64,000 nt of DNA, from NCBI GenBank assembly GCA_049604715.1, contig JBMYTV010000003.1, positions 4,228 through 68,227 on the forward strand. The letters are read 5' to 3'. Origin of the DNA: Patescibacteria group bacterium (lineage in GTDB: Bacteria; Patescibacteriota; Patescibacteriia; S139-126; S139-133). Within the stretch, counting starts at the first letter, position 1. Each line of letters opens with the position of its first letter. Made by a program: the position numbers and the translations under genes. Below, piece by piece: positions 6,923-42,452 of this stretch. The notes beneath the pieces are model-generated. The model made no database searches and was not told where the DNA came from. It saw only the letters and a list, made by a program, of their open reading frames with translations.

Positions 6923-8167
6923 CTACGATCGTGTTAATCGCTCTTCAATATAAAGCAAGCGGTTGTACTTTACCACGCGTTCTCCACGTGATGGAGCTCC
7001 AGCTTTTATAAATGGCGCATTGATAGCTACAGATAAATCTGCAATAAAGTCATCAGTGGTCTCACCAGATCGATGAGATACCACAGGCGTTAGATTATGT
7101 TTTTGAGCTAGTTGTACAGTCTCAATAGTCTCCGAAACTGTACCAATTTGATTAAGCTTGATAAGCACGGCATTTGCTGCTTCCATATCAATTCCTTGCT
7201 CAAGACGAGTCTTATTAGTCACAAACAAATCATCGCCAACAATAAGCATATTATCCTTGAGCATACGATTCATAATCTGCCAGTTTGCCCAATCATCTTC
7301 ACCTAGACCGTCTTCAATGGAAATAATCGGATAATGCTCTTGCCACTTTTTATAAAGTTCAATAAGCTCAGTTGCATCAAGCTTTTTACCTTCAAACTCA
7401 TATGTACCACCTTTCATAAATTCAGAAGCTGCTACATCAAGCGCAATAGACACATCAATACCTTGTCGATACCCAGCATGATCAATTGCTTGCATCAAAA
7501 GCTGCAATGCTTGGTTGTTGTCTTCCAAGTTAGGCGCAAACCCTCCCTCATCACCAAGTCCGGTTGCATAACCTTGTTCATGTAAGATTGTTTTTAGAGA
7601 CCGAAAGGTCATTACACAAAACTCAAGTTGCTCTTCAAAGGTATCAGCGCTTGGCACAATCATAAACTCTTGAATTGAAAGTGAGTTGTCAGCGTGCCGT
7701 CCTCCATTAATAATATTCATCATTGGACGTGGGATAGCACCCTTTAGTGTAGTTCCATACACGTCCGCTAAATGCCTATAAAGTGGTTTTCCAGCAGATA
7801 GTGCACCTGCTCTAGCACAAGCCATTGAAACTGCTAAAATTGCATTGGCGCCTAATTTTTTCTTATTAGAAGTACCATCTAGAGCGATCATAGTTTCATC
7901 TATCTTTTGTTGATCTTCAGCGTCCATATCAAGCAGCTCATCTCTGATATCCTTTAGGATGTGTTTGATAGCTTTTTTTACACCATCTCCTCCATAACGA
8001 TCATCCTTATCTCGAAGCTCTAAAGCTTCGTGACTGCCAGTAGACGCTCCTGACGGAACTTGAGCAGAAGCCTCTAAACCAGATGAAAGCACAACAGTTG
8101 CTTGAACAGTTGGCCGACCTCTAGAGTCAATAATTTCTCTTGCTGTAATATCGTGTATATGTGCCAT
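6923..8167 (-). CDS. eno: Enolase
   Basis: N-terminus IIDSRGRPTVQATV. Full-length enolase motifs including SHRSGETTD near the C-terminus. Confidence 0.95.
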   Translation of the reverse strand: MAHIHDITAREIIDSRGRPTVQATVVLSSGLEASAQVPSGASTGSHEALELRDKDDRYGGDGVKKAIKHILKDIRDELLDMDAEDQQKIDETMIALDGTSNKKKLGANAILAVSMACARAGALSAGKPLYRHLADVYGTTLKGAIPRPMMNIINGGRHADNSLSIQEFMIVPSADTFEEQLEFCVMTFRSLKTILHEQGYATGLGDEGGFAPNLEDNNQALQLLMQAIDHAGYRQGIDVSIALDVAASEFMKGGTYEFEGKKLDATELIELYKKWQEHYPIISIEDGLGEDDWANWQIMNRMLKDNMLIVGDDLFVTNKTRLEQGIDMEAANAVLIKLNQIGTVSETIETVQLAQKHNLTPVVSHRSGETTDDFIADLSVAINAPFIKAGAPSRGERVVKYNRLLYIEERLTRS

Positions 8168-8169
8168 AA

Positions 8170-9357
8170 TTATTTAACTAATGGTAGTAATCCAGGTTGG
8201 CGTCTATCTGAAATAAAAGATAATAACGCCCCACCTCCAGTTGATGCAAATGTAACATCATCAAGCAAACCAAGACGAGCAAACACCCGTACTGTTTCTC
8301 CGCCACCTATAAAACTCTTCATTGACCCATCATGAGTACGCGCTGCAATAAATTCAGCAATTGCCTCTGATGCATGAGAGCCTTGTCGCTGTTCAATCAT
8401 ACCAAGTGGCCCATTCCATAGTACTGACTTGGCTTTGCGCAGTTGAGATACATACTCTAGTACCGTGTTCATACCAAGATCTACGATTGCATCTTTTTTC
8501 AAAACGCTTTCAATGTCTTTTAGTTGTGACTCAATTTTCTTAGTACTTGTATCATCACAAATGCAGTCTGTAGGAAGTAGTACTTTTTTGTGACGTGCTA
8601 ACACCTTGCCCTCAGTAACAAAATCTTTTTCATAAATTGATGCACCTACTTCTTGCCGTGCGCTCTTAAGTATTGTGTTAGCAAGTACACCCCCAACTAA
8701 TACTCTTTCTGCTTTTGGCATTAGTTTTTGTATAAGTGGAAGTTTTGTAGCAGCTTTTGCACCTCCCATGATCAAGAAATGTGGTTTTGTTGGCTTGGCA
8801 ATAAACTTATCCAATGTACTAACTTCTTTATCCATCAGAAGCCCAGCATAGCTTGGCAAAAACTCTGGTATACCAGTCATACTTGCGCTGTCACGATGAA
8901 TAGCTCCAAATGCATCATTAATAAACACATCACCAAGGCTTGCTAGGTCATGTGCGAATGTATTGTCACTAACCTCCTCACCAGGATGAAACCGCAAATT
9001 CTCCAAAAGGACAACTTGGCCTGGCTTCATCCTGTCGAGGTGACGGCGGGCCCCCTCACCCTCATGCAAGGGTATCATTTTTACTGGTTTACCCAGTAGC
9101 TTTCCCAGCGTGATAGCAACTGGTTTAAGCGATAAGTTTGGATCTTCCTTTCCATGCGGACGTCCACGGTGCGATAAGATAATAACTTTTGCACGCTTCC
9201 GTATCAGATAACGAAGTGTAGGGATAGTAGCCTCTATCCGGTACCGTTCATCAGCATGCACACGTCCTTTTTCGTCTGTCTCAACATTATAATCAACACG
9301 ATATAAAACGCGTTTAGCCTGAAGTGTATGGAGTTGTGTGCAAACCCGTAGCTTCAT
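8170..9357 (-). CDS. pgk: Phosphoglycerate kinase
   Basis: RVDYNVE near the N-terminus, GGGA/GGGETV glycine-rich motifs, and typical 395-aa length. It sits 2 nt upstream of eno. Confidence 0.9.
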   Translation of the reverse strand: MKLRVCTQLHTLQAKRVLYRVDYNVETDEKGRVHADERYRIEATIPTLRYLIRKRAKVIILSHRGRPHGKEDPNLSLKPVAITLGKLLGKPVKMIPLHEGEGARRHLDRMKPGQVVLLENLRFHPGEEVSDNTFAHDLASLGDVFINDAFGAIHRDSASMTGIPEFLPSYAGLLMDKEVSTLDKFIAKPTKPHFLIMGGAKAATKLPLIQKLMPKAERVLVGGVLANTILKSARQEVGASIYEKDFVTEGKVLARHKKVLLPTDCICDDTSTKKIESQLKDIESVLKKDAIVDLGMNTVLEYVSQLRKAKSVLWNGPLGMIEQRQGSHASEAIAEFIAARTHDGSMKSFIGGGETVRVFARLGLLDDVTFASTGGGALLSFISDRRQPGLLPLVK

Positions 9358-9392
9358 GGGGATAGATAATACTATCTGTAGTATAGCATATC

Positions 9393-11012
9393 TCAGGCAT
9401 TTTTTGCCTGCTTCTTCAAAGGCAATTCAACAACAAATGTTGTTCCTTTGCCCTCACCTTGGCTTTTGGCAGCAATTGAACCACCATGACCTTCTATAAT
9501 CTTCTTTACAATAAATAATCCAAGGCCCGTGCCACCTGCGTCAATTTGTGCAATGCCCTTGGCGCGAGAAAACTTTTCAAACAAATGCTCAGCATACTCA
9601 GGATCAATACCAACACCAGTATCATGCACTTTGACAATAACAGAATCAGGTTTTTTCTCAGTTGTAACCCATACCTTACCCGCTGGTGTGTATTTGATAG
9701 CGTTATCTACTAGATTAACCATCACATCTTTGAGCTTATCTGAGTCACCAGTAAACGGCAGACTTTCACCAGCACCAACATAGTCTAGTTCTAGGCCTTT
9801 TTTCTGAGCGATCGGATGTAGCTGGTTTACTACATCAGTAATAAGATCTTTTACATCAAAGTCTACCTGTGCAATTTTTAGTCTTCCTGATTCAATACGC
9901 GATACATTGAGGAAAACTTGCACCAAACGCGCCAAACGCTCCACTTCATCATATACACGCGTCAATGACTCATTTTGTTCTTTATTAAAGTTGCCAAAGT
10001 CACCAGCAATGATCATAGAGAGATAGCCCTTGATACTTGAGAGTGGTGTACGGAGTTGGTGTGAGGTGATTGATAAAAACTCTGTCTTGGCTTCATCTAG
10101 TTTTTTGAGTTTTTTGTTTGCGGTCTCTAATTCCTTTGCTAGAGATTCGATTTGCTTCCTTCTTTCAATTTCACGTACAACACTCCTAACAAGCATAACA
10201 CCAATAACTATAGTAGTGGTTAGAATTAACCCGTTTCCAATAAAATCTACCAAAGTTGGCGAAGTGATAAATTCCAATAGAGATACTAGTATCAGAGCAC
10301 CTACTAGTAATTCTGTTGCGATAACTCTTATATTAAGCAAATGATGTCGGATTATTGCGTATGAAGTAAATAATACAAACGGCAGTGTATATAAATGACC
10401 ATACCTGACACTTGATAAGTCTTGCAGAGCAACTGGATAAATAAAATTAAATATTAACACCAAGGTCACCGTGGTAATTAAACCGATCCCCAAGAATTTC
10501 CACTGTTGACGAACTATACCCTTTGCTAACCGCCATGACCTCACCAAAGTTACTATGGCCAGAGAAATAAATGCTAAAGAGTAAATAGCAAACAATAACA
10601 TACCTGGACCAGCAACAGGCGTAGGGACATGTCTAGTAGTATCAAGATGAGTAAATAAGAAAGGAGAACGGGCTATAAATACCATTAAAACCATTAAAAA
10701 CAGAAATAAGAACCCCCTTTTAAGACCGATCACACTCTTATTGTGTAGAAAACTCTTGGTTAATAGATAAAACAATAACGGGTGAGGTATTGCAGCTGCT
10801 ATTGTCCACTTTGCAAAATTTAATATAGATTCATGCGTACTATTTATCGCAAAAAAGTTTACCATAATCCAAATTGTCTGGGAAATGCCAAATAGTGCGA
10901 AAAAAATAGCGTCCTGTCTTCTTGCGCGAGACCTAAGCACTAGGGATACCAAAAAAAGATTAACTAAGGCTACTAAGACTAATAGAGCAAATTCGACTTC
11001 TCCAAATGACAT
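9393..11012 (-). CDS. Sensor histidine kinase (multi-TM N-terminus; HisKA + HATPase_c)
   Basis: About 6-7 N-terminal TM helices, a coiled linker, the H-box SITSHQLRTPLSSIKGY, and N/G-box motifs (DNAIKYT, DTGVGI, GGTGLGL). No response regulator is adjacent. Confidence 0.85.
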   Translation of the reverse strand: MSFGEVEFALLVLVALVNLFLVSLVLRSRARRQDAIFFALFGISQTIWIMVNFFAINSTHESILNFAKWTIAAAIPHPLLFYLLTKSFLHNKSVIGLKRGFLFLFLMVLMVFIARSPFLFTHLDTTRHVPTPVAGPGMLLFAIYSLAFISLAIVTLVRSWRLAKGIVRQQWKFLGIGLITTVTLVLIFNFIYPVALQDLSSVRYGHLYTLPFVLFTSYAIIRHHLLNIRVIATELLVGALILVSLLEFITSPTLVDFIGNGLILTTTIVIGVMLVRSVVREIERRKQIESLAKELETANKKLKKLDEAKTEFLSITSHQLRTPLSSIKGYLSMIIAGDFGNFNKEQNESLTRVYDEVERLARLVQVFLNVSRIESGRLKIAQVDFDVKDLITDVVNQLHPIAQKKGLELDYVGAGESLPFTGDSDKLKDVMVNLVDNAIKYTPAGKVWVTTEKKPDSVIVKVHDTGVGIDPEYAEHLFEKFSRAKGIAQIDAGGTGLGLFIVKKIIEGHGGSIAAKSQGEGKGTTFVVELPLKKQAKNA

Positions 11013-11029
11013 GGGTCGTATATTAAAGA

Positions 11030-12100
11030 TTAATAATAAGTTGGTTCCGACTTATAACTTCGTGAAATTGAATCTGTATCATTCACTGACTTCCCTATCC
11101 TAGAAAGCATTAAAATCTCCTCTTCGTCTTCGAGATTAAATATCCCTTTTATAGAATCATATATGCTCAGTACTTTTTCTGATTGTGCCCTAGACAAAAA
11201 GTCAACACTCCGCCTATTTTCATTTATCCTATGACGGAGATATATCAGAGCAGCTACTGGTTGTAGTGATAGTTGTTTGGAGGTTAAATGAAGCCAAATT
11301 CTTTGAAGTAATATCCCTACATCAAGATAAAGTTTTTGTTTTTTCACATTTTTAGTAGTACTTAACAAGATATAGGAATCTGTTTCAGAATAGAGCCCTG
11401 CCGAATCTTTAGAGATTAATTTCGTTAAACCTAGAATCTTAGCTAATCTAGCTAAACCGTCAAAATTGAGTAGCAACCTAAAAACAAATTCTTTTTCTTT
11501 TTCCAAGGCTAATGTTCTTATGTACAAACCCTTTCTTTTTTCTTTATGTACCCTCTCTTTCCAAACTATAGATGACAATAAAGAACTTCGAATGAATTTG
11601 TTCTCTAAAATCAGCATCTCATTATAAGACAATAATTTTGCAATCTCATTTACTTTAGTGGATTGACTTACCACTTTAACGAACACCTTCTTGTCAGAAA
11701 AACTTTTAAGTGTGTTAATGACCGAATCTTGAACACTATTCTTTAAGTATGGACGTCTATCTGTAAATCTATTTTTTATACTTTCATAATTTTCATCGAG
11801 TTTTTTTTCAGACTTTGTAAATTCAACCTTTGCAACAATATCACTACATTTATCAGGAAAATAAAACAAATTGCAACCATATCCCTTATATGAAGAGATA
11901 ATCCTTATATTTTCTAATAACGCACCTACAGCCACTAAGCTACCTCTTTTTTGGTAATTGTAAGCTTCGTTATCATTCGATGCAGTACATTTAATAAACA
12001 ACACATCATTCTTGATTCTAAATCTCCAAGGCTGAGAATTGTCACCTGAAGGAGCTTCAACAGCTTCTACGAGTATTTCTTTTATCTTCTGTTCTAGCAT
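11030..12100 (-). CDS. Nitroreductase-superfamily (FMN-dependent, SagB/McbC-like) oxidoreductase
   Basis: APSGDNSQPWRF motif (nitroreductase family S-x-N-x-QPW-F). A second RRPY-type segment suggests a two-lobed architecture. It is the last gene of a 4-gene operon. Confidence 0.55.
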   Translation of the reverse strand: MLEQKIKEILVEAVEAPSGDNSQPWRFRIKNDVLFIKCTASNDNEAYNYQKRGSLVAVGALLENIRIISSYKGYGCNLFYFPDKCSDIVAKVEFTKSEKKLDENYESIKNRFTDRRPYLKNSVQDSVINTLKSFSDKKVFVKVVSQSTKVNEIAKLLSYNEMLILENKFIRSSLLSSIVWKERVHKEKRKGLYIRTLALEKEKEFVFRLLLNFDGLARLAKILGLTKLISKDSAGLYSETDSYILLSTTKNVKKQKLYLDVGILLQRIWLHLTSKQLSLQPVAALIYLRHRINENRRSVDFLSRAQSEKVLSIYDSIKGIFNLEDEEEILMLSRIGKSVNDTDSISRSYKSEPTYY

Positions 12101-12107
12101 AAATAAG

Positions 12108-13550
12108 TTATTTTTTGGTAATTATTTTTGGTTTACCTGTAGAATCTAGGTATACTCCATTAACCTGCTTTGGATAAAAGTTCTTTTCATTATATTCTTT
12201 GAATACGATACTTGGCAGAGCCTTGCTCTTTATCATCTCTAATAACTTACTATACTCTATATTCAGCCTTTTTAAATTCCTTACTATACTTTCCAGTATA
12301 ATGACTTTATCAGCATCTGTTAAATCAGCTACTTTTAAATTCTTTGAAAGCTCTAAAACTAATGTGAAAATTTCTTCTTTGCTTTTATTCTTTAACTTCG
12401 AATATGAGAAAAACTTACCGGTTAAGAATTTCTTACACTCTCTGGACTCAATGCCTGCCAAAATATGTTCTGGGTATATGTGTAGTGCGTAGAAAGTCAC
12501 ACAAACATTAGACCTACCTGTAACTGCTACAATTGGTAGATTCCAAGCTGGAAATTTTTCAACAATATTCCTTATCAACTTTGAGTCACTCTTTTTTAAT
12601 AACTCGTTTATTGTTAGCACACAGCCCTTATCTTTAATGTTGTATCTAACCAAGGGAATAGGCGTGTTGATAGTAATGATCAATTGTTTATTAACACGTT
12701 CAAAGAAAATAGATCTGGGATGGAATTGGTATAACCCAGGCACAGCATCAACGCTATCGAACAACGTCATTAACAATGAAGTGGGGAGTTTTTTTCTTAA
12801 ACTGATGGTCAGCGGTGTTTCGTAAGCCATTTTACCAGCATCAGTAGACCCGTAAACGCTACATATAGAAAAAGGGTCTCTTTGTCCCAAAACAGTTAAC
12901 AAATCATCTCTCCATTCTTCAGAAATTTTACTTCCCGTAACTAAAACTTTGTATTTCTTATTATTGTCAAGCAACTTTAATTTTTTAGCCTCTAATACTA
13001 TATCCATTACAAAAGCTGGGTGGCCTGCAAGTACTATATTTTTATAAAAATTACCTAAAGATGACAAGACTGACAATGTTCTTTCAACCGAGTATCCTGG
13101 GGTAGCTGTGGTTATATTAAATCCTTGCCTAGATAGCCCACGGCATGCAGCTAATGTATGGTGACCAGCCATCCAAAGGTCCATTGCAAAACTAATTACC
13201 ACTAAAGTGGGCTCACCTTTTTTAATGTTATACAGCCCACTAAATAACTTTTTATGTGATAATAAACTAAGCGCCTCTTGTTGATCACTTCCAAACCAAA
13301 ACGTAGGACTACCTGTTGAGCCTGAGCTGGCATAAACAATAGGAGGCTTGCTTAATTTATCCTGTAACTGATCCACTGAGTACTTCAAAATGTAACTTTC
13401 TTTCGAAGTAAGGGGTATTTGCGACCATTCTATGTATGAGCCAACCGATTTTCTTGTATTATAATCGCTTAACTCCAGGTAACTAGCGTAGGCTGGAACA
13501 TTCTTTATAGCATGATAATAAGTTTGTTTTGCGTTTACAAATCCTTGCAT
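12108..13550 (-). CDS. Adenylate-forming enzyme, PaaK / coenzyme F390 synthetase-like (ANL superfamily)
   Basis: YASSGSTGSPTFW matches the PaaK/F390-synthetase P-loop (SSG[ST]TG.P). 480 aa. Confidence 0.6.
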   Translation of the reverse strand: MQGFVNAKQTYYHAIKNVPAYASYLELSDYNTRKSVGSYIEWSQIPLTSKESYILKYSVDQLQDKLSKPPIVYASSGSTGSPTFWFGSDQQEALSLLSHKKLFSGLYNIKKGEPTLVVISFAMDLWMAGHHTLAACRGLSRQGFNITTATPGYSVERTLSVLSSLGNFYKNIVLAGHPAFVMDIVLEAKKLKLLDNNKKYKVLVTGSKISEEWRDDLLTVLGQRDPFSICSVYGSTDAGKMAYETPLTISLRKKLPTSLLMTLFDSVDAVPGLYQFHPRSIFFERVNKQLIITINTPIPLVRYNIKDKGCVLTINELLKKSDSKLIRNIVEKFPAWNLPIVAVTGRSNVCVTFYALHIYPEHILAGIESRECKKFLTGKFFSYSKLKNKSKEEIFTLVLELSKNLKVADLTDADKVIILESIVRNLKRLNIEYSKLLEMIKSKALPSIVFKEYNEKNFYPKQVNGVYLDSTGKPKIITKK

Positions 13551-13552
13551 TG

Positions 13553-14566
13553 TTACTTAGTAAAACTATTATAATTAATTAGATAATTTCCACAAATCTG
13601 TTTCGTTAAGAGTATGCTTCTGACAGCATCACTTGCCACCGCACCAGCCACCATTGAAGTTGTTCCTAACTGTGGTATTGAAACCAATGTACTACCAACT
13701 TCCTTTAGGGAACTCCGTAACCTATCTCCTGGCTCAAAACCTATTATTTTATTAGCAATTCTAATCCAATCTTGCTTGTTTAATAAATGCCCAGCATCTA
13801 CTATCTTCTCATCTTTTAATACGCCGTGAAACAACTCTTGGTCTTCACTGATGTCATACCTTTCAATGCTAATTACAACTTCTTCACCAAAGTCAGTAGC
13901 CATGACTACTGGAATTTTGTTCACTTTACAGTATTTTCTCAACTCAATTTTTATACTTATGTCATCGACAGCGTCTACTAAAACATCAATATTTTCGTTT
14001 ATCACAAAATCATTAATATTACTTTTCTGTACTCCACAATCAAAAAACTTCATATCTATAAATGGATTTACCTCCCAGGATTTTCGCATAGCAACCTCAC
14101 CTTTTAAAGAACCATAATCAACCAGGCCAGCGTTTATCCGGTTTAGGTTAGTAACCTCTACCGTGTCAAAATCTGCTAAAACAAACTTGTTTCCAACAGC
14201 CGATCGTAGTAAACCATCTAATACTTTCGAACCTACTGACATCCCTGCTATTCCAATCTTTGAATTGTATACCTTTACCTGCTCAGCTTGTCGAATCAAG
14301 TTTTTATTCCGTGAGGTAATTAAATCGACATAAAAATCTTCGCCGGGTAAACAGAAAACCCTATCTAACCAATCGTAATGAGCCCACACTCTTTTAATAT
14401 TATGGTGGCACACAAATTCACTTACCAAACTGTCACTTATACTATTCTTTAACTTTGGATTATCAATTAAAACCAACTCCCTTATACAATCATTGAAAAT
14501 ATTAACAATTTCAACTTCTGTATTGAACTTTGGTTTTTCTTCATATATTGTAGGCTTCTCAATCAC
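13553..14566 (-). CDS. ThiF/MoeB/E1-like adenylyltransferase with ~100-aa N-terminal extension
   Basis: Rossmann nucleotide-binding motif KIGIAGMSVGSKVLDGLL at about residue 105. The N-terminal extension precedes the E1 fold, as in MccB/PaaA-type peptide-binding E1-likes. Confidence 0.6.
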   Translation of the reverse strand: MIEKPTIYEEKPKFNTEVEIVNIFNDCIRELVLIDNPKLKNSISDSLVSEFVCHHNIKRVWAHYDWLDRVFCLPGEDFYVDLITSRNKNLIRQAEQVKVYNSKIGIAGMSVGSKVLDGLLRSAVGNKFVLADFDTVEVTNLNRINAGLVDYGSLKGEVAMRKSWEVNPFIDMKFFDCGVQKSNINDFVINENIDVLVDAVDDISIKIELRKYCKVNKIPVVMATDFGEEVVISIERYDISEDQELFHGVLKDEKIVDAGHLLNKQDWIRIANKIIGFEPGDRLRSSLKEVGSTLVSIPQLGTTSMVAGAVASDAVRSILLTKQICGNYLINYNSFTK

Positions 14567-14569
14567 TTG

Positions 14570-16120
14570 TTAATAGATTAGGGTATTAAAGTTCTTTCTA
14601 AATGCCTCTAAATTACTTGTGAAGTCCTTATCTTTATACCAAACAGGAAATACAGCTCTTACTTTTTTATAGAGTTTATCAGAAGATTTTGAGATTTCTT
14701 CATTTACACCCATCACATCGGTAGCCTGTGCAAGAGTAATCAATCCAACCCCGATAATTTGTTTTATAGCCTCAATAACCTGATAACTTAATAACGAAGA
14801 ATTAGTGCCCATGCTAACAATATCTTGATTGTCAGCATTTGTTGTTATGCTGTGTACATAATTAGGAAAACACAAGGTCTGTATTTCAGCGGTTGTGGAT
14901 GTGGCAACAAATTGCAACCCTTGTAAGGCTATATCAAATCCTGGCTTACGTAGATTTAGGAATGGAGGTAAGTGGTCTCGGACATTTGGGTTGAGAAAGA
15001 TATTAACATGTCTTTCTACAGTCATCGCGATACGTGATAGTCCAATCTTTACTTTATCCATCTCGAATGACACGTAATCCCCATGAAAATTTCCTCCATG
15101 TAATAGGGTATCAGCCTTTCCATTGGTTATTGGATTATCTGTTACTGAATTAATCTCGACTTCTATAACTCGTTTTGCATTTTGTATAACTTCCCAAATA
15201 GGACCGTATATCTGAGGCAAACAACGTATTGAGTATACATCTTGAACTTTATGATCAATTTTTCTCACATCGTGCTTTCCTACGTCAATTTTTTTTGCTA
15301 AATCTAATCTATGCTGTAGTAATTTTGACGTACTAAGTGCATTTCTCATTTTCTTAGCAACAAAAATCTGACCTTTATGTGGACGTAGCGCCTGGATTTC
15401 ACTACTTATAGGGTCATCAAACCCAGCCATAAGTTCATATGTGTATGCTCCTGCAACTATAGCCAAATCGATTATCTTACGTGCCTCATATAAAACCAGC
15501 GATCCAATTCCGGACATGGCCGCCGTACCGTTTATTAAGGCCAAGCCTTCCTTTGATACCAAGTTGCTAGGTTTAATTTTTAATCTTTTTAGTACGCTAC
15601 TTGTTTTTTTTACTCTACCTTTATAATAAACCTTTCCCTCTCCAATCAAAGCTAATGCAACGTGTGCTAACTGGACAAGGTCTCCGCTTGCTCCTACAGA
15701 ACCATAGCGTGGAACAGCTGGGACAATACCTGAGTTGATATATAGCTCAATTTGTTTAATAAGCGACCACCTAACCCCAGACCTACCTTTCAATAGCGTA
15801 TTTAATCGCACTAACATAACTGACATACACTGCTGTCTAGTTAAGTATTCGCCCATTCCAGTCGCGTGACTACGTATTAGGTTATATTGCAATTGATTAA
15901 TTTGCTTCTTACTCAACACGTACTGCGCCATAGGACCAAATCCTGTATTCACACCGTATGTTAAAACCGATTCGCCGATTTTCTCAACAAACTTTCTTGA
16001 CTTATCTACTTTGATTTTACATTTCGCATCTACCCTTACCAACACTCCGTTATTTGTAACCTGCCATATTTGATCAATGGTTAAATCCCCTCCCGTTAGA
16101 ACAACAGGTTTACTTGGCAT
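14570..16120 (-). CDS. MIO-dependent aromatic amino-acid ammonia-lyase/aminomutase (HAL/PAL/TAL family)
   Basis: GSVGASGDLVQLAHVAL contains the Ala-Ser-Gly triad that forms the MIO cofactor, and the context is HutH-like. The 516-aa length matches the family. Confidence 0.8.
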   Translation of the reverse strand: MPSKPVVLTGGDLTIDQIWQVTNNGVLVRVDAKCKIKVDKSRKFVEKIGESVLTYGVNTGFGPMAQYVLSKKQINQLQYNLIRSHATGMGEYLTRQQCMSVMLVRLNTLLKGRSGVRWSLIKQIELYINSGIVPAVPRYGSVGASGDLVQLAHVALALIGEGKVYYKGRVKKTSSVLKRLKIKPSNLVSKEGLALINGTAAMSGIGSLVLYEARKIIDLAIVAGAYTYELMAGFDDPISSEIQALRPHKGQIFVAKKMRNALSTSKLLQHRLDLAKKIDVGKHDVRKIDHKVQDVYSIRCLPQIYGPIWEVIQNAKRVIEVEINSVTDNPITNGKADTLLHGGNFHGDYVSFEMDKVKIGLSRIAMTVERHVNIFLNPNVRDHLPPFLNLRKPGFDIALQGLQFVATSTTAEIQTLCFPNYVHSITTNADNQDIVSMGTNSSLLSYQVIEAIKQIIGVGLITLAQATDVMGVNEEISKSSDKLYKKVRAVFPVWYKDKDFTSNLEAFRKNFNTLIY

Positions 16121-22196: not shown

Positions 22197-22598
22197 ATGA
22201 TGAAATACTTGTCCGTTTTACTCGTCGCGCTGTTGCTGATTACAGCGTCAACCTTTGCCCAAACAAAAACTAATGAAGGAAAGGTTGAAACCTTAAAGTC
22301 AGCCACCGGCGAAATCGTTTCAAAGACGTATAGTGATGTTTCCATCACGATTACATGCCCCTGGTTGGATCCCGAAACATACGCCGAGGCCAAGGCAGAA
22401 GTACTCTACGCAAAGGCAGACTCCACCAGCACTACCGCAACACCTTATCGGTTAAACCTCTACCTGAAAGACCAAAGCAAAGCGCACGGCGACTATAACC
22501 TCCGGAATTTGGAAAAGACTGAAATGAAAATTATCATCTCCGACCCGGACAATGGCAACAAAGTATTAGTTCGATTTCCACCTGCAGCCACATCCTAA
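22197..22598 (+). CDS. Small secreted hypothetical protein
   Basis: Signal peptide MMKYLSVLLVALLLITASTFAQT. No recognisable domain. Confidence 0.5.
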   Translation: MMKYLSVLLVALLLITASTFAQTKTNEGKVETLKSATGEIVSKTYSDVSITITCPWLDPETYAEAKAEVLYAKADSTSTTATPYRLNLYLKDQSKAHGDYNLRNLEKTEMKIIISDPDNGNKVLVRFPPAATS

Positions 22599-22605
22599 CC
22601 CTGGC

Positions 22606-22629
22606 AACCACTACAACGTAGTGGTTTTT
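22606..22629 (+). terminator. Rho-independent terminator (plus-strand gene)
   Basis: aaccactac-aac-gtagtggtt hairpin followed by TTTTT. Confidence 0.6.
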
Positions 22630-22640
22630 GTACATTATAA

Positions 22641-22663
22641 AACCTCGCTCTTTGAGCGAGGTT
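22641..22663 (-). terminator. Hairpin terminator for convergent giant gene
   Basis: aacctcgctc-ttt-gagcgaggtt, a 10-bp stem. The minus-strand reading is followed by TTTATAAT. Confidence 0.45.
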
Positions 22664-22681: not shown

Positions 22682-25600
22682 TTAACGAATCAAAAGCATC
22701 TTTTTCACCTTGTGAAACGACTCTGTTGATATGCGGTAAAAATACATACCGCTCGCAACATTTCGTGCGTCCCACTGCACATGGTGATATCCGGCATTAT
22801 GCCGCTCATCAACCAAACGAGCAACCTCCTGTCCTAGGAGATTGTATACCACGATTTTCACATGAGTATCATGAGGTAAATCAAACGCTATAGTCGTCAT
22901 TGGATTAAAAGGATTGGGGTAATTTTGATGGAGATTGTACTCTGTTGGCAATAGTGAGATGACTTCATCGTCACCAGCGCTTTGCTTAGCAAGTAGATTA
23001 GCATCATACGGAAGACCACTGCCATCTGCATACAGATCTGTAATCTCACTACTACTCAGCATCCGAGACCACATACCAAGCTGATCAACAGCGCCATTGG
23101 CATAGGGCGCATTACCGTTTTCCCAAGCACCAACCCTGAATACAGCTGCGCTGGTATTGATCGTAGTTGGCAAACCGCCAAGACTGTCGGTAAGAACACC
23201 ATCCTTGTACACGCGAACACTTCCAATTGACATATCATATACCCAGACAAAGTGGTACCACGCATTACTACTGATAGCACCAATATCCAGATATACTTGT
23301 GATGTAGTGTTATTTGTACCGTCTGCAGAAATTACTACCTGAGCCTTGTTACCACTACTAAGTTTCCTAATACATACCATATAGCTTCGATTGGGCTGGC
23401 CATCATCCTTGTAGACAACTGGAAACTTTGTTTTTGTTTCCCATGACTTTGGATGCAGCCATGCTGATATCGTAAAGCTACTGGCTAGATCAAGGCCATA
23501 CTCTGTGCCTGGTTGAATTGACAAATACTCACTGTTACTTGCTGTAAAATCAGCCGCAACATCCTGGATGCCAGCAAGCGACGTAACAGTGTTGTTGTCA
23601 GCCAAATCATTTGAACCATGGGCATCGTATCGCGTGCCACTGGTCTCATTCATCTCCCAGAAAGAAACAAGATCATCAGTCAGTGTCGCATGGTGTGCAA
23701 TATCAGGCTCACTCGGAACCATCACCGTGTCATTACTTGCTGCACGATACACCACCTGCAGCACCGGCCGTTTTGCTACATCAACATGATCAGCAGTAGC
23801 AACCTGCACGTACGATCCGCGTCCCCACACACCGGCATACTCATTCACCGTCATATCGAGGATGTCATCACCTTGCCGCAGAGCAAGTGTAGTCATGCTA
23901 CTCAGATCGATCCATGACCTTCCAGCAGAATCAAGCTCTATCACCACTGTGCTATCAAGATGCAGTGCAAAATCCGTTGGTGCAAAATACAACCGCTCAG
24001 CACCTTCGATAGGGTTAGATATTGCACCCATGTGGCTGTAATCACCTGCTGTAACCGGCAAATCGTACGTCCCGCGTGTTACCCCGAGAAAGTGCGACTG
24101 ACCTTGAGAATTCCGGTAATCAACCACATGCATCTGCAGCGTCGCAGCTACTATTTCAACAGTATCAGGCAACACTGAGGTATCAAATGGCAATGCATAC
24201 CGCCGAATATCACCCCATGCCGGCCCATCAAACTGACTTACGCCAATCTGAACCACTGTAGCATCAACCGATTCAACCACGCCAGTTGCCAGGTCATGAT
24301 GATATGACCAAGAGGTCTGGTAACCATAATTACCATCCTGCACCACTACATCAGCGGCATCAGCATAGATCAGCACGGTATCGCAATCAGCACACGCAGT
24401 TGTTGTATCATCCATGACTGTTGTGACAGTTGTAAGCACTGCTTCTGCACTTGGTGTTCCACCACGCTGGTGCGTAGATACATCAGTCAGGTCATCATTA
24501 AACGGCCAATATCCGATGAGTCCACTATCAGCGGTCGCATAATACTCTGTACTGAGCGTCACGTCTTTAGTTGCATTAATCTGGCTTTGCGTGCGAGTAC
24601 GATTCCACACACGCACTTCATCAACATAGCCATTGATCACAGCGCGATTGTAATAGTACATATTGTCATCCGATCCACCAATATACCATGGATAGTCTGC
24701 CTGCCAGGTTGACCCGCAATTACCAGGCTTTGTAGAAACTAGGTTACCATCAAGAAAAAGCTGAATACCAGCAGAGCCATTATAAGTAGCTACGATATGG
24801 TACCAACGATCAAGCTCTAAACTCACAGGATACTCTGCAACATCAGCCGTACCGCTAATAAAGCAATAGATCTTGGATGGTGTCAGACCAAGCTCAAACA
24901 CAGGATTGTTGTGCTCGTTATGCCAGTTGCTAATAATCGCACCTGTTGAAAGCGCATTCAAATACACCTTGCCTTCAAAGGTAAACTGATTACCACTCAT
25001 ACCACCAGATGCCGCCTCAACACGATCCTTATGCCCATCAAAGGCAGCGACTGTATCTATCACTGTTGTGGTTTGCTCTGCCTGCGGATTTGCAACAGTC
25101 ACTGTATATGGATACCGCACTGTTGCCAAAGTACTTAGGTTCTCTCCTTGACTAAGTACTTGTACTTCATAGCGTGAGACATCAGTTGGTAGTGTGAATA
25201 TAGGACTGAGCCATACTGTATCTTGCGCAAAAGACAGTGTGTCATCTGCAGGATTCACATTCCAGTACGACGTTCCGTACGAATCATATAGCCGCACACG
25301 GAAATTAGGCAGTACTACTTTCTGGCCATCATCTTCATCGTGATCAAATGCCACGCGCACGTACACCTGACTTTCAGGTGTATGTTCACGCTTGATTGAA
25401 TCACCAACAGCGTTACTTAAGAACACGCTCGACACATGCACAGAATCAATACCCCAGGGTTGATACACACTAAACCCAAGTGGATTTTGTGCGCCATCAA
25501 TATCCTGGTAGTCCAGTCCATCATGTGCAGACACCCATAGCTCGTGCGCACCCAGATTGTACATTGGATCCATCACTGCGCTAAATGTCAGACTGTCATA

Positions 25601-27280
25601 CGGCATTAGCGTCACACTGGTATCACCAAACATGGTAAACCGCTGATCCTGAGTCTCAAGCTCAAACCGCACAATCTGCTCGGTAGTATCGCCGCTGGTT
25701 GACGCAACAGTTGCTGTAACAACTGCACTATCATACTGCAGCGGTACTGACCCTGGCACAATACTCACTGCCGTTACTTCCAAAAGATCTGGGTTGTAGG
25801 TTGTGTTTGGGTTACCTGCAAGTACAGGAAATAAACGCTCTTGCACTTCAGGTGCAATTGCACCAATCTGCCAACTCTGACCATCTTTGGTGACAAACAC
25901 CTTGAAGGTGTAGTTGCCACTATCAGCAAACGTGTGGTTCACCGTTTGCTCATAAAAGGCATCACCCGCAACCGTCACGTTATTCCATTCCCAGGATGCG
26001 ATTGTGGGGCCGTAGGCACGCAAACGAATACTCTCGTACGTCACTGACTCACTCTCTAAATTCTTGAGCTTCACCGTAAAATCGTACGGGATGTTCTCCA
26101 CGCCAGATGACGGAATCGTCCATTGGTAGATGGATACTGCACCAGTTCCGTTGCCAGAACCACCACTTCCGCCTATACCCGCTATTGTCATCAAAGCGGT
26201 ATTACTAGCGATCTTTGTGCTACCTAACCACACCTCTACAACACCGGGCGTATTTGAATAATAGCTGGGCACATACTTCATATACCCATGATCAAAATAC
26301 TGGTATGTGTTTCCATCTAACTCATTAAACTCTTCATCGCTGGTTGGCGCACCAAGATCGGTAGGTCCGAAATACTGACCACCTGTTTTGTCAGAAAGGT
26401 TCATGTAAAAATCACGAAAACCTTCTTTCAAAAGAAATGCTTCAGTACCAGCAGAATTCAGCATAATAGCCGTGTGGCCATCATAGAATCCAGTATTGTC
26501 TCCATAAAAATCCTGGAGGGTGATACCGGACCAGTCGTGGACGAAGTATCCACCGCCGTTGTCGTTGGGTAATCCTAAATTACCAGTAAGATAAGCGAAC
26601 AAATTAGAGATTGGTTTTGACTGCTTGGAATATGAGCTTGTATGCCAGGGTGGAAAGTCGCCATATTGAGCAAGTCCCAACACCCAGGGCATAGGGTCTG
26701 TGAAATCTGATCCCATACCTGAACCATTTTCATACCCCCTGAGCCATGCAGAGCCATCATTACTTTTAGCTGTCTGTTCATCAGACAGTCGAAAAGCTAA
26801 ATGAAGATGCTCTGCTCCATCACCATTATGCGCATCATCATTGATATAACCCAAAACATCACCCGGATTAACAACGTCGCCATAGCTGTAAGAAAGTGCT
26901 GCACCACCTCTCTCCTGACTACTTCTTAGGTGACCATAGATTATTAGCAACTTAGTTGCCTCGACTAGCTCACCATAGCTATTAACAAACATAAGCACTT
27001 CCGGTAAAACAGACTCTGTTGCAGCAACTAATTCCCCATAACCCACCGCTGGACCGTAATAAACAATCTTACCCGAGGCGATTGCTTCTACAGCTGTACC
27101 TTCTAAAAGGTCAATATCTGACCCTAGATGATTCTGATTGTAGTAAAAACTACGGCCTTCGTAATAATTCCAACCGGAAGACATGGTCTGATTCGGATAA
27201 TTAAAACCCGAAACAGGACTTTGAGCAAAAAGAATACTCGAAACAAAAATGAGCGCCAACAACAAATACGAAATCTTCAT
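22682..27280 (-). CDS. Giant secreted multidomain protein: N-terminal M23 (LytM-type) peptidase, beta-sandwich repeats, two LamG-like (concanavalin-like) domains, C-terminal T9SS-type sorting domain
   Basis: Signal peptide MKISYLLLALIFVSSILFAQS. M23 motifs HLGSDID ... HLHLAF. LamG-like motifs VDEVRVWNRTRTQSQI and DQLGMWSRMLSSSEITDLY. C-terminus NYPNPFNPMTTIAFDLP...VKIVVYNLLGQEVARLV...SGMYFYRI matches the Por/T9SS C-terminal sorting domain consensus. Confidence 0.75.
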   Translation of the reverse strand: MKISYLLLALIFVSSILFAQSPVSGFNYPNQTMSSGWNYYEGRSFYYNQNHLGSDIDLLEGTAVEAIASGKIVYYGPAVGYGELVAATESVLPEVLMFVNSYGELVEATKLLIIYGHLRSSQERGGAALSYSYGDVVNPGDVLGYINDDAHNGDGAEHLHLAFRLSDEQTAKSNDGSAWLRGYENGSGMGSDFTDPMPWVLGLAQYGDFPPWHTSSYSKQSKPISNLFAYLTGNLGLPNDNGGGYFVHDWSGITLQDFYGDNTGFYDGHTAIMLNSAGTEAFLLKEGFRDFYMNLSDKTGGQYFGPTDLGAPTSDEEFNELDGNTYQYFDHGYMKYVPSYYSNTPGVVEVWLGSTKIASNTALMTIAGIGGSGGSGNGTGAVSIYQWTIPSSGVENIPYDFTVKLKNLESESVTYESIRLRAYGPTIASWEWNNVTVAGDAFYEQTVNHTFADSGNYTFKVFVTKDGQSWQIGAIAPEVQERLFPVLAGNPNTTYNPDLLEVTAVSIVPGSVPLQYDSAVVTATVASTSGDTTEQIVRFELETQDQRFTMFGDTSVTLMPYDSLTFSAVMDPMYNLGAHELWVSAHDGLDYQDIDGAQNPLGFSVYQPWGIDSVHVSSVFLSNAVGDSIKREHTPESQVYVRVAFDHDEDDGQKVVLPNFRVRLYDSYGTSYWNVNPADDTLSFAQDTVWLSPIFTLPTDVSRYEVQVLSQGENLSTLATVRYPYTVTVANPQAEQTTTVIDTVAAFDGHKDRVEAASGGMSGNQFTFEGKVYLNALSTGAIISNWHNEHNNPVFELGLTPSKIYCFISGTADVAEYPVSLELDRWYHIVATYNGSAGIQLFLDGNLVSTKPGNCGSTWQADYPWYIGGSDDNMYYYNRAVINGYVDEVRVWNRTRTQSQINATKDVTLSTEYYATADSGLIGYWPFNDDLTDVSTHQRGGTPSAEAVLTTVTTVMDDTTTACADCDTVLIYADAADVVVQDGNYGYQTSWSYHHDLATGVVESVDATVVQIGVSQFDGPAWGDIRRYALPFDTSVLPDTVEIVAATLQMHVVDYRNSQGQSHFLGVTRGTYDLPVTAGDYSHMGAISNPIEGAERLYFAPTDFALHLDSTVVIELDSAGRSWIDLSSMTTLALRQGDDILDMTVNEYAGVWGRGSYVQVATADHVDVAKRPVLQVVYRAASNDTVMVPSEPDIAHHATLTDDLVSFWEMNETSGTRYDAHGSNDLADNNTVTSLAGIQDVAADFTASNSEYLSIQPGTEYGLDLASSFTISAWLHPKSWETKTKFPVVYKDDGQPNRSYMVCIRKLSSGNKAQVVISADGTNNTTSQVYLDIGAISSNAWYHFVWVYDMSIGSVRVYKDGVLTDSLGGLPTTINTSAAVFRVGAWENGNAPYANGAVDQLGMWSRMLSSSEITDLYADGSGLPYDANLLAKQSAGDDEVISLLPTEYNLHQNYPNPFNPMTTIAFDLPHDTHVKIVVYNLLGQEVARLVDERHNAGYHHVQWDARNVASGMYFYRISTESFHKVKKMLLIR

Positions 27281-27419: not shown

Positions 27420-28025
27420 CTAAAAAACTTCCAAGGTTGTTAAAACTTTTATATAATTCTTATCTTCATTGATACTACTAACACCATACAAAGTAACTTC
27501 AATGAGCCTGTCATCAAAAGAAGCCACAATTGCTGTAGTCTCTATAATACCCAGAATATTAATGTAATTAACTCCTTTTATCTGTCCAATTGAAATAGTT
27601 TCTTTATCAGCTGCCAATTCTTCCAAATTATAAAGGAGAAGATCATTGCCCGGATGTAGTTTCTGCTTTGCAATGGCTTTATAAAAATCAGGGACTGATA
27701 GCTTTTCTGGATTATTAAAAACTTTAACCTTAAAGCTTCCTTCATCAAGGGGATCATTACTAACAAACAAATTCACAAAAGATTCTCCTTCCAATACAAC
27801 CCCCCACCCCTCCGGATACATAAACTCAAACCCATACTCCTCATTCCGGTACGTCTGCCAGTCTGAGGTGTCGATGTCTGATGCGATCAACTCTCCTTCT
27901 TGAGGCGCTTGGGTTGTGTGATCCTCGTTATCCGGTTGGTTATTTTTTTGAACATACCAAACACTACCTCCAATAAGGAGAATACCTAAAATTGATATTA
28001 TTACTATTATATTTTTTTTATTCAT
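27420..28025 (-). CDS. Small N-terminally anchored secreted protein, paralog family member A
   Basis: MNKKNIIVIISILGILLIGG TM/signal anchor plus the conserved block SDIDTSDWQTYRNEEYGFEFMYPEGW shared with two neighbours. Confidence 0.7.
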   Translation of the reverse strand: MNKKNIIVIISILGILLIGGSVWYVQKNNQPDNEDHTTQAPQEGELIASDIDTSDWQTYRNEEYGFEFMYPEGWGVVLEGESFVNLFVSNDPLDEGSFKVKVFNNPEKLSVPDFYKAIAKQKLHPGNDLLLYNLEELAADKETISIGQIKGVNYINILGIIETTAIVASFDDRLIEVTLYGVSSINEDKNYIKVLTTLEVF

Positions 28026-28059: not shown

Positions 28060-29283
28060 TTATATAACTCCACATATGTATAAACTATATTCACTCTCTA
28101 AATTCTTGAGCTTCACCGTAAAATCGTACGGGATGTTCTCCACGCCAGATGACGGAATCGTCCATTGGTAGATGGATACTGCACCAGTTCCGTTGCCAGA
28201 ACCACCACTTCCGCCTATACCCGCTATTGTCATCAAAGCGGTATTACTAGCGATCTTTGTGCTACCTAACCACACCTCTACAACACCGGGCGTATTTGAA
28301 TAATAGCTGGGCACATACTTCATATACCCATGATCAAAATACTGGTATGTGTTTCCATCTAACTCATTAAACTCTTCATCGCTGGTTGGCGCACCAAGAT
28401 CGGTAGGTCCGAAATACTGACCACCTGTTTTGTCAGAAAGGTTCATGTAAAAATCACGAAAACCTTCTTTCAAAAGAAATGCTTCAGTACCAGCAGAATT
28501 CAGCATAATAGCCGTGTGGCCATCATAGAATCCAGTATTGTCTCCATAAAAATCCTGGAGGGTGATACCGGACCAGTCGTGGACGAAGTATCCACCGCCG
28601 TTGTCGTGAGCGTGGCCAATATTACTGAGTAATCTGTGTTTTTCTCGAAAGAACTGAGAAGGCTTGTCATGATTCTGATCATGCCAAACTGCTTCATTAT
28701 TTTCCCAAAAAAAACCAACATTTGGATATGGCGACTCACTCTCTAACCAAGCTACAGGATCGACAAAAGAGTTAGTAGATGGGGAATCTGAACAAGGCAT
28801 TCTGCCCCATGGACTGTTGGGAATGACTTCACCAGACACAACACCAAAGTGAAGGTGGTTGCCTGATGGCCAATACCCTATTGATCCAATCGCTTCTCCA
28901 GCGTACACTAAATCATTTTCTTGCAGAGTTGACTCAACATGACCGTAAAATGAAAGAAAATACTCCGAGGTACCTTCCAGGCGATGTTTAACAATCAAAG
29001 CAACATTACCACCGCCCCAACCATTTGTACTCACCAAAAGAACAACACCATCGGCTACAGCGTATACGGAACTACCCAAGGCAGTTTCATAATCATGTCC
29101 GATATGGTATTCATCAGGAAAATAGCCCGTACCACCATTACAGCCACTAGCCAACCAACCTGCAAAATTTCCCAAACTACTACTACCTGTAGGATAATAA
29201 CAACCCGTCGCTGAATGCTGCATACTTTGTGACCAACAAAAACAAGACCAAAAAAATACTAGCGTTATTACAAACCGTTTCAT
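28060..29283 (-). CDS. Secreted M23 (LytM-type) metallopeptidase with C-terminal domain duplicated from the giant protein
   Basis: Signal peptide MKRFVITLVFFWSCFCWSQS. M23 motifs HIGHDYE...HLHFGV. The C-terminal ~180 aa are identical, at the nucleotide level too, to residues ~230-410 of the 1532-aa protein. Confidence 0.75.
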   Translation of the reverse strand: MKRFVITLVFFWSCFCWSQSMQHSATGCYYPTGSSSLGNFAGWLASGCNGGTGYFPDEYHIGHDYETALGSSVYAVADGVVLLVSTNGWGGGNVALIVKHRLEGTSEYFLSFYGHVESTLQENDLVYAGEAIGSIGYWPSGNHLHFGVVSGEVIPNSPWGRMPCSDSPSTNSFVDPVAWLESESPYPNVGFFWENNEAVWHDQNHDKPSQFFREKHRLLSNIGHAHDNGGGYFVHDWSGITLQDFYGDNTGFYDGHTAIMLNSAGTEAFLLKEGFRDFYMNLSDKTGGQYFGPTDLGAPTSDEEFNELDGNTYQYFDHGYMKYVPSYYSNTPGVVEVWLGSTKIASNTALMTIAGIGGSGGSGNGTGAVSIYQWTIPSSGVENIPYDFTVKLKNLESEYSLYICGVI

Positions 29284-29404: not shown

Positions 29405-29995
29405 TTAATATACTATTTTCTCGTTTTCAAAATTTAAAGTAAGTAATATCCTATCATATACAGCTAACAAATCATCTTCAATGGCTGCTACTGCGAAATT
29501 TAAGGTATAGCCATTACGATTGATGAGTGTTTCGAGTCCTCCTGTTGTGGATCCACGTAATGCATTTAGCTCCCCAATCTTTACATCAAAACTATCTTGG
29601 TACACTTTTCTATTACCCTTCCAAGTTTGAACCCATATTTTCTGTAAACTTTCTGTATCATACTCATATACCGCTACTGACAACGAGTATGTTTCAGTCC
29701 CTTCTAAATAACGCCTTTTCTCAGTCTCGTAAAAACGTATAATTCCAGGATTATTTCTTCCAATCTCCCACCCCTCAGGATACTTGAACTCAAAACCATA
29801 CTCTTCATTCCGATACGTTTGCCAGTCTGATGTGTCAATGTCAGACGTGATCAACTCTTTGTCATCTTGAGTTTGGGTTGTAGATTGTTGCTCACTTAGC
29901 TGTCCACTATTCCCAACATACCAAACATACCCAGCACTTCCGGCTGCAAAAATGACAAGAATTATAATTGCATAAATAAGTATTTTTTTATTCAT
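29405..29995 (-). CDS. Small N-terminally anchored secreted protein, paralog family member B
   Basis: MNKKILIYAIIILVIFAAGS anchor plus SDIDTSDWQTYRNEEYGFEFKYPEGWE. Confidence 0.7.
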   Translation of the reverse strand: MNKKILIYAIIILVIFAAGSAGYVWYVGNSGQLSEQQSTTQTQDDKELITSDIDTSDWQTYRNEEYGFEFKYPEGWEIGRNNPGIIRFYETEKRRYLEGTETYSLSVAVYEYDTESLQKIWVQTWKGNRKVYQDSFDVKIGELNALRGSTTGGLETLINRNGYTLNFAVAAIEDDLLAVYDRILLTLNFENEKIVY

Positions 29996-30143: not shown

Positions 30144-30755
30144 TTAATCGATTTTAAATGTACTCATAACAGCATCTAGGTAACCGCTATTTCTAGTATG
30201 TAATGGCGCTTGAATATTAATCGTTTCAGAATCACTAAACTGAATACAATAACTACTGTAACCTGGAAACTTATATTGAGTTGAACCACCTATCGAAATG
30301 TTTTGATCTAATTCGTAGTAATAGTATCTTCTCCCATACAACTCTCCTTTCCTTTCATTTTTTACTTTACTCTGTAAATCCATATAATAATCACCCCCTA
30401 AGCTAAATAAGCTATCTATACACGCTTCGAAAGACGGGAGACTTACTTCGATAACATAAACATCATCCTCTAAATAATCCCCGATAATTATTTCATTTAA
30501 AGTACCATTCGAGTAACTCAAATCTACCTCCCACCCCTCCGGATACATAAACTCAAACCCATACTCCTCATTCCGATACGTCTGCCAATCTGATGTGTCT
30601 ATATCAGATGTGATCTCCTTAACATTATCTTGAGTTGTTGTTTGTCCTATATCACTTGGCTGTCCATTATTCCCAATATACCAAAGATACCCTACAGCCA
30701 AACCTGAGAGGATGATGATATTGAGAAGTAAAAATAAAAATATTTTTTTATTCAT
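30144..30755 (-). CDS. Small N-terminally anchored secreted protein, paralog family member C
   Basis: The likely start is the internal MNKKIFLFLLLNIIILSG, since the track's upstream Met extension is unlikely. Conserved block SDIDTSDWQTYRNEEYGFEFMYPEGWE. Confidence 0.65.
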   Translation of the reverse strand: MNKKIFLFLLLNIIILSGLAVGYLWYIGNNGQPSDIGQTTTQDNVKEITSDIDTSDWQTYRNEEYGFEFMYPEGWEVDLSYSNGTLNEIIIGDYLEDDVYVIEVSLPSFEACIDSLFSLGGDYYMDLQSKVKNERKGELYGRRYYYYELDQNISIGGSTQYKFPGYSSYCIQFSDSETINIQAPLHTRNSGYLDAVMSTFKID

Positions 30756-30995
30756 GGTATTAGTAAAAATAGTTAACTTTAGCACGAGTATTGCGAGCGT
30801 GAAGCTGCTTGCATGCAATAATGCTCAAACAATAATGACCATTACTAATTCCATGATATAAGACAAATGATAAAGTTTGTTTCATACCTTTTTGAATACT
30901 CGTTATACTCTCTCCACAAACATAACTAGTATACCAAAGATATTTGGTCTGAAGGCCCCGCCCATGCTCTATGACAAAAGCGGGGCTTGCAGGTT

Positions 30996-42444: not shown

Positions 42445-42452
42445 GCAAACAT

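Follow-up and report, generated by a model that had tools for sequence, protein, structure and literature searches.

Why should a member of the Patescibacteria encode a protein that ends in a type IX secretion system (T9SS) sorting signal? The question is raised by a 64-kb stretch of a Patescibacteria contig, JBMYTV010000003.1 (hereafter the window), whose minus strand carries, at 22682..27280, an intact open reading frame (ORF) for a giant protein of 1532 aa with a T9SS type-A C-terminal domain (CTD) at its tail. For the Fibrobacteres–Chlorobi–Bacteroidetes (FCB) superphylum, and for diderm envelopes, the T9SS with its CTD signal counts as a hallmark. The finding here is that a canonical CTD of this type, confirmed by the searches below, is conserved together with an apparently Bacteroidetes-style signal peptide on hydrolases that belong to a polymorphic Patescibacteria cassette. 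We lean towards reading the giant protein as a polymorphic, host-directed cell-wall hydrolase and adhesin of Patescibacteria that would be exported by Sec, would derive from the FCB group and would use its CTD in a role other than T9SS export. A literature search, in which subscription journals were not covered, found no paper linking T9SS CTDs to Patescibacteria or to the wider candidate phyla radiation (CPR).

The C-terminal domain and the protein that carries it

A sequence-only reading of the window had assigned the last ~75 aa of the 1532-aa protein to the T9SS CTD. The peptide that it quoted does occur in the translation, and both profile families for this domain agree with the assignment. 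The Pfam family PF18962 (Por_Secre_tail), for which the cutoff is 27 bits, scored 40.5 (E 3.5e-10; aa 1454-1528, nt 22697-22921), and the NCBIfam family TIGR04183 (T9SS type-A sorting domain), for which it is 23, scored 39.3 (aa 1454-1529). The domain as a whole covers aa 1454-1532 (22685..22921, minus strand), ends in KKMLLIR directly before the stop codon and so closes a protein that has a putative N-terminal Sec signal peptide. FlgD_ig and CHU_C from Pfam also match the tail, both below threshold. A hidden Markov model (HMM) built from homologous tails was then run over 595 six-frame segments of the window; its one match was the tail of the giant protein, and the runner-up had an E of 5.5.

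In an alignment of fifty-four sequences, the invariant residues P15, N16, P17, F18, N19, T22, G71 and Y73 are all found in the giant's CTD, which thus has the PNPFN motif, the T, the G..Y pair and the KKMxLxK/R end. Using this alignment, AlphaFold2 (AF2) predicts a beta-sandwich of six long strands with a pLDDT of 93.3. Foldseek searches of the PDB with the model returned Bacteroides DUF3244 domains as well as three CTDs, those of PorZ, mirolase and RemA. These matches are marginal (E 3e-4 to 1e-2) and many generic Ig folds were also matched, so the predicted fold fits a CTD but is not specific to one. We conclude that the giant's tail is a genuine T9SS type-A CTD.

From its N-terminus, the giant protein consists of a signal peptide, an M23 peptidase, a conserved family module, a variable middle, two LamG domains and the CTD, all encoded on the minus strand. 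Its first residues, MKISYLLLALIFVSSILFAQSP, form a hydrophobic leader that resembles a signal peptide when read from the sequence. The putative Sec signal peptide spans aa 1-20 (27221..27280), reading MKISYLLLALIFVSSILFA up to a cleavage site placed by eye and QSP after it, with glutamine at the predicted +1 position. The Peptidase_M23 domain (aa 50-167; 26780..27133; PF01551, 31.1 bits, cutoff 28.7) has its zinc-binding catalytic motifs intact, namely HxxxD (HLGSD, aa 51) and HxH (HLH, aa 158). It is followed by the conserved family module at aa ~195-415 (26036..26698), which has a weak LGFP-like Pfam match and is common to the neighbouring M23 gene and to four of the relatives described below (P0002, P0034, P0297 and P0289).

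The middle of the protein is a variable Ig/lectin region. Pfam PF13385 matches the ORF over two stretches, with 131.2 bits against a cutoff of 27.6. The first Laminin_G_3 (ConA-like lectin) domain lies at aa 748-902 (24575..25039), and the second LamG or TafC-like jellyroll domain, which is kept together with the CTD in P0297, at aa 1199-1419 (23024..23686). The exact counterpart of the giant at NCBI, on a contig of 123,830 bp, is MGB0757201.1, annotated as 'LamG-like jellyroll fold domain-containing protein [Patescibacteria group bacterium]'. No match was found when the whole protein was compared with PDB sequences.

A recurrent cassette in a CPR genome

Six loci were compared, comprising the window and five others from independent assemblies (L081, L084, L088, L089 and L090). 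In all six a PsbP_2-like homologue stands directly upstream of the homologue of the giant, and in each of the five others the large protein has a CTD. The layouts differ considerably: M23 with FG-GAP in L081 (P0002), CHAP in L084 (P0034), Peptidase_C39_2 with LamG in L088 (P0297), M23 with CBM_4_9 in L089 (P0289) and PKD/LVIVD in L090 (P0184). The N-terminal hydrolase is swapped across the family among M23, CHAP and Peptidase_C39_2, and the middles are mutually unrelated (FG-GAP, PKD/LVIVD, CBM_4_9, LamG). What stays constant, in L081, L084, L088 and L089, is the module at ~aa 200-340 and the CTD.

A search with the N-terminal module among 1.84 billion cluster representatives gave 278 relatives at E<=1e-3, and the named ones are all Patescibacteria, Uhrbacteria or Moraniibacteria. 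We ran the CTD HMM over the best 150 of these 278, together with earlier matches, and found a terminal CTD on nine of the nineteen members of at least 900 aa (P0001, P0002, P0034, P0184, P0205, P0211, P0289, P0291 and P0297). All nine CTDs lie near the consensus, while the catalytic modules of the same proteins are just 34-51 per cent identical, which argues that the CTD is maintained and recurrent and is no single orphan. M23 metallopeptidases from metagenome-assembled genomes (MAGs) of Patescibacteria, Uhrbacteria and Moraniibacteria are 44-57 per cent identical to the giant's M23 module, in which the catalytic motifs are intact. Those proteins differ from the giant in being 250-700 aa long, in lacking a CTD and in mostly having lipoprotein signal peptides or plain ones without glutamine at +1. 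A scan of metagenomes with the conserved module added two short loci only, and a scan of viral contigs found nothing.

Three of the six cassette loci are labelled Patescibacteria. The genes that flank the cassette in the window recur, rearranged, in L089: those for PrfA (52 per cent identical), PrmC, L25 and FtsW, a pilin-like gene and a 294-aa gene. The L089 FtsW clusters at >=90 per cent with a protein from a 'Patescibacteria group bacterium' MAG. The L090 recombinase and MFA6466757.1, a 90 per cent relative of the L090 CTD protein, have the same label. P0320 is labelled Patescibacteria as well, and another close relative, without a CTD, is found on a 1.035-Mb Patescibacteria contig. The cassette of L090, which comes from a Patescibacteria MAG, stands at 7501-13504. 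Its neighbours there are a large serine recombinase, MutH, a helicase, two DNA methylases and an HTH/ImmA pair, and it may be on a mobile element.

The window itself comes from a CPR genome, as the sequence-only reading had supposed from the look of the surroundings. The closest relatives of its GyrB (59-67 per cent identity) are MAGs of Uhrbacteria, Jacksonbacteria, Peribacteria, Peregrinibacteria, Moraniibacteria and Liptonbacteria, whereas GyrB of the FCB group is only ~50-53 per cent identical. The organism label of the giant protein at NCBI is Patescibacteria, and the neighbouring M23 gene on the same contig is annotated 'M23 family metallopeptidase [Patescibacteria group bacterium]'. The window carries housekeeping genes for glycolysis, PrfA, PrmC, DnaE, ThrRS, GyrB, NusG-L11-L1, the dTMP pathway and FtsW, and CPR housekeeping genes lie on both sides of the giant gene. 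Families typical of CPR are also present (DUF5671, PsbP_2, DUF3048), along with many exoproteins anchored by an N-terminal transmembrane (TM) segment. Among the GyrB relatives, several MAGs (L002, L003, L006, L009) are labelled 'uncultured Gammaproteobacteria' or 'Bdellovibrionales'; their GyrB is 59-66 per cent identical to that of the window, so these labels are probably wrong. One of them, a 1.23-Mb chromosome, is evidently mislabelled.

Within the window the cassette is a tandem duplication. A paralogous M23 hydrolase of 407 aa, without a CTD and with glutamine at +1 of its signal peptide, is encoded at 28060..29283 on the minus strand and matches aa 5-415 of the giant with 53 per cent identity. 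A 517-nt tract of the giant gene (26049..26565) is 100 per cent identical to 28091-28607 in this neighbour, the two direct copies being 2,042 nt apart. The flanks of the tract are merely ~45-55 per cent identical between the two genes, which points to recent gene conversion between the tandem paralogs. The M23 paralog stops ten codons past the tract and the giant continues for >1,100 residues. Taken by itself, the repeat could also mark a spot of possible assembly error.

Each hydrolase gene has its PsbP_2-like partner, encoded on the minus strand. The one directly upstream of the giant (27420..28025; PF18933, 27.3 bits) is TM-anchored at its N-terminus and contains the motif DTSDWQTYRNEEYGFEF.YPEGW. 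A second (29405..29995) is upstream of the CTD-less M23 paralog, and a third PsbP_2-like gene lies at 30144..30755, its likely start being the ATG at 30755 and not the TTG at 30818. These three TM-anchored proteins have the motif DTSDWQTYRNEEYGFEF.YP..W in common. On the other side of the giant, a 133-aa ORF on the plus strand (22197..22598; GC content at third codon positions, GC3, 0.53; no family match) is convergent on it and is predicted to be secreted. Between the two, a GC-rich hairpin read from the sequence (CCTCGCTC-TTTG-AGCGAGG; 22643..22661, minus strand) is followed by a minus-strand T-run and is likely the terminator of the giant gene, and a second hairpin with a T-run (22606-22626), also read from the sequence, would serve the convergent plus-strand ORF.

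Several other features of the window lie apart from the cassette. Two full-length genes for cofactor-independent phosphoglycerate mutase stand in tandem (3759-5330 and 5336-6901), adjoined by enolase and PGK. A low-GC cluster at 11030-16120 (32-38 per cent GC) ranks second in the window for atypical tetranucleotide use (z 2.4-2.6). An Rv1355c-like protein is split there into a ThiF-type E1 half at 13553-14566 and a nitroreductase half at 11030-12100, with a weakly PaaK-like gene of 480 aa between the halves; the split genes are adjoined by genes for an aromatic amino-acid lyase at 14570-16120 and for a 7TM histidine kinase at 9393-11012. The neighbouring genes at 47789-48676 and 48810-49952 have no Pfam or NCBIfam match, and their GC3 is 0.45-0.46 against a window mean of 0.325. 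No tRNA, rRNA or Rfam family at gathering score was found in the 64 kb of densely coding sequence.

Foreign affinities and competing explanations

When the CTD was searched on its own, relatives of up to 63-64 per cent identity were found, and the named ones belong to Ignavibacteria, Bacteroidota, Marinimicrobia/Neomarinimicrobiota and Calditrichia. Three CPR CTDs that we compared rank only 24th-131st of 152 to one another, and each is closer to FCB sequences, in a pairwise-identity comparison for which the 80 aa of the domain are too few to resolve a phylogeny.

The signal peptides may have a similar affinity. Three classical cleavable signal peptides occur in the window, and with cleavage sites placed by eye all three have glutamine at +1: those of the giant (cut between LFA and QSP), of its M23 neighbour (29215-29283; between CWS and QSM) and of the 133-aa ORF (between TFA and QTK). 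Every other exported protein of the window has an N-terminal TM anchor. Glutamine is likewise found at the by-eye +1 position in eight of nine CTD-bearing relatives, and in L081 and L084 the remaining classical signal peptides have no glutamine there. Glutamine at +1 is known as the 'Q-rule' and has been described as specific to Bacteroidetes (PMC5837995). These three genes would give the locus a second Bacteroidota-like hallmark, where the sequence-only reading had seen none in the window besides the CTD.

The composition of the giant gene also stands apart. It is richer in GC than the rest of the window, as the sequence-only reading had noted by eye, with 45.9 per cent against 39.4 per cent, and in tetranucleotide use no stretch of the window is more atypical than 22-27 kb (z 3.2-3.7). 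The GC3 of the giant gene exceeds that of its flanks by 1.5 sd in the window, by 3.4 sd in L084 and by 4.8 sd in L090, where it is 0.44 against 0.235 in the flanks. Along the window's giant gene GC3 is uniform, and this includes the paralogous part. Because of the CTD affinity, the apparent glutamine at +1 of the signal peptides and the raised GC3 in three loci, we favour an FCB origin, probably Bacteroidota-like, for the hydrolase lineage, which would have entered CPR from FCB bacteria and would keep exchanging modules horizontally; a single recent transfer into this genome is not favoured.

The same observations could be read differently. It is possible, though in our judgement unlikely, that an FCB bacterium was the source of the gene or of its C-terminal two thirds, captured so lately that a functionless CTD has not yet decayed. 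The atypical composition of 22-27 kb and the raised GC3 would be expected in that case, as would nearest CTDs from FCB at up to 64 per cent identity and a signal peptide that obeys the Bacteroidetes rule; the homologue in L090, with its GC3 excess and its recombinase and other mobile-element genes alongside, is also consistent with capture. A relic does not account well for a terminal, near-consensus CTD on nine family clusters with such divergent catalytic modules, nor for the same neighbourhood around the cassette in L089, whose PrfA is just 52 per cent identical. Moreover, the N-terminal third of the giant, a local paralog, has been subject to gene conversion, and GC3 is even along the whole gene. 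The sequence-only reading had offered horizontal acquisition with an orphan tag as one possibility; the composition and the FCB-like CTD speak for its foreign origin, but with the CTD on at least nine related clusters the tag is not an orphan.

We give little credence to the idea that the protein is ordinary cargo, exported or anchored by a T9SS (one of the options of the sequence-only reading) or a derived CTD-recognising system in a lineage with some outer layer, so that the CTD does the job that it has in FCB bacteria. As functional cargo it would have its CTD removed by PorU and would then be released or joined to A-LPS. All T9SS-relevant motifs are kept on many members of the family, and a Q-rule signal peptide with a CTD is the exact signature of Bacteroidota cargo. 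T9SS type-A cargo such as gingipain RgpB, PorZ, mirolase, and RemA and ChiA of F. johnsoniae is like the giant in its Sec signal peptide, its large multi-domain enzyme or lectin body and its terminal CTD of ~80 aa, and the likeness extends to HMM scores above cutoff, motifs and the Ig-like beta-sandwich, and perhaps to the glutamine at the predicted +1. Unlike such cargo, the giant is encoded in a CPR genome, next to a CPR-type TM-anchored PsbP_2-like gene, and the named relatives of its M23 module are CPR. In Paludibacter sp., P0198 (MDD3194273.1) has an M23 module of the giant's subfamily (E 1e-39 to the giant's N-terminus) and a weak CTD-like C-terminus. It differs in coming from a bona fide member of the Bacteroidota, where a T9SS is expected, and it is a partial record whose CTD scores 15.9 bits with our HMM.

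The machinery that such cargo would need, which comprises SprA/Sov, PorV, PorU, PorZ, GldK/L/M/N and PorT in a diderm envelope, was not seen at these loci. None of the ~60 ORFs of the 64-kb window matched a T9SS or outer-membrane (biogenesis) family, none appears in the Pfam lists for ~95 kb of related loci, and the visible part of the type IV pilus cluster in L084 has no secretin. A pair of 1153 aa and 384 aa at 38983-43607 was tried as PorU/PorV and rejected, being DnaE and an unknown protein. The T9SS, which carries cargo across the outer membrane (PMC11205867, PMC12618676), has been reported only from the FCB superphylum (PMC11205867), and an outer membrane has been proposed to be absent in Patescibacteria (PMC12102498). 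Related genomes, at ~1.0-1.2 Mb, also speak against ordinary cargo.

A more elaborate possibility, which strikes us as far-fetched, is that the CTD acts on a host. Epibionts of T9SS-bearing FCB bacteria might mimic T9SS cargo, with the CTD docking on PorV or SprA of the host, either for attachment or as a route through the host's outer membrane to peptidoglycan that the M23, CHAP or C39 head would cut.

Last, a chimeric contig or bin, an option of the sequence-only reading in which a Bacteroidota or FCB gene is joined to CPR DNA, perhaps at the 517-nt repeat (assemblers can mis-join at exact direct repeats of this kind, and the 22-27 kb composition is atypical), is very unlikely and the least probable explanation of all: the giant's N-terminal third is a tandem paralog, the N-terminal module and the CTD share one ORF with a PsbP_2-like gene upstream in five independent assemblies, CPR housekeeping genes flank both sides in a PrfA/PrmC/L25/FtsW neighbourhood common with a Patescibacteria relative (L089), the taxon labels agree, the repeat is crossed without a break in reading frame or GC3, and a repeat within one contig permits one linear assembly path only.

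A possible role for the cassette and its domain

We return to the explanation that we prefer, an FCB-derived hydrolase and adhesin with a CTD used outside T9SS export. The giant gene would encode a multi-domain peptidoglycan hydrolase and adhesin that is exported by Sec, and the cassette consists of two genes, one for a membrane-anchored PsbP_2-like protein and the next for a large, putatively secreted cell-wall hydrolase. In a cell without an outer membrane, the signal peptide alone would suffice to put the protein outside. Since both the outer membrane and the T9SS are presumed absent, the CTD is probably not an outer-membrane export signal in the producer. The conservation of the CTD suggests that the folded domain does something; it may be kept as a C-terminal beta-sandwich whose role is most plausibly surface retention or the binding of a host target.

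Swapped heads, unrelated adhesin-like middles, tandem paralogs with gene conversion and a variable partner place the family closer to polymorphic conflict or host-interaction proteins than to housekeeping autolysins. Polymorphic toxins, such as the TANFOR T9SS toxins of Bacteroidetes (PMC7073777) and those of PsbP/MOG1-associated toxin loci (bioRxiv 10.1101/2025.01.14.632903), are likewise large secreted proteins with constant ends and swapped enzymatic or variable modules, and the window cassette resembles their cassettes further in its small adjacent partner gene, its tandem paralogs and its gene conversion. It differs from them in that the enzymatic head is N-terminal and not C-terminal, the partner is upstream and membrane-anchored, the organism is a CPR bacterium and any immunity role is putative. 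By this comparison the giant could be a hydrolase directed at a host or a competitor, with the PsbP_2-like protein as a self-protection or docking partner. One candidate for a more specific role, the PsbP_2-like partner as receptor of the CTD, is weakened by the presence of a partner ahead of the CTD-less paralog.

Several observations weigh against the explanation that we prefer. GC3 is not raised in L081, L088 and L089, so the transfer signal is uneven, and the GC excess of the giant gene is partly a matter of amino-acid usage, the protein being rich in G, A, S, T and D and having 2.2 per cent Lys against 7.4 per cent and 4.2 per cent Ile against 7.3 per cent. With this usage and a flat GC3 in three of the six loci, the GC excess is only partly valid as proof of transfer. 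As to the Patescibacteria setting of the family, L081 and L088 are without a taxon label and that of L084 says just 'bacterium'. The failure to find T9SS or outer-membrane genes in this genome covers just 64 kb of a ~124-kb contig. The CTDs remain near the consensus that the T9SS recognises, as would be expected if a recognition system were still acting on them, and the PsbP_2-like gene, being found upstream of the CTD-less paralog too, offers no CTD-specific receptor. We know of no demonstrated function of a CTD outside the T9SS.

A match to TIGR04183 alone is thus to be read with caution, since it proves neither T9SS cargo nor the contamination of a bin. If the conserved Patescibacteria CTD is what it appears to be, one meaning would be that monoderm, ultrasmall bacteria have re-used a secretion signal for another purpose. 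A second would be ongoing gene flow from FCB bacteria to CPR, which would hint at the identity of the hosts. The third, which we rank as the least likely, would be that some CPR themselves recognise CTDs.

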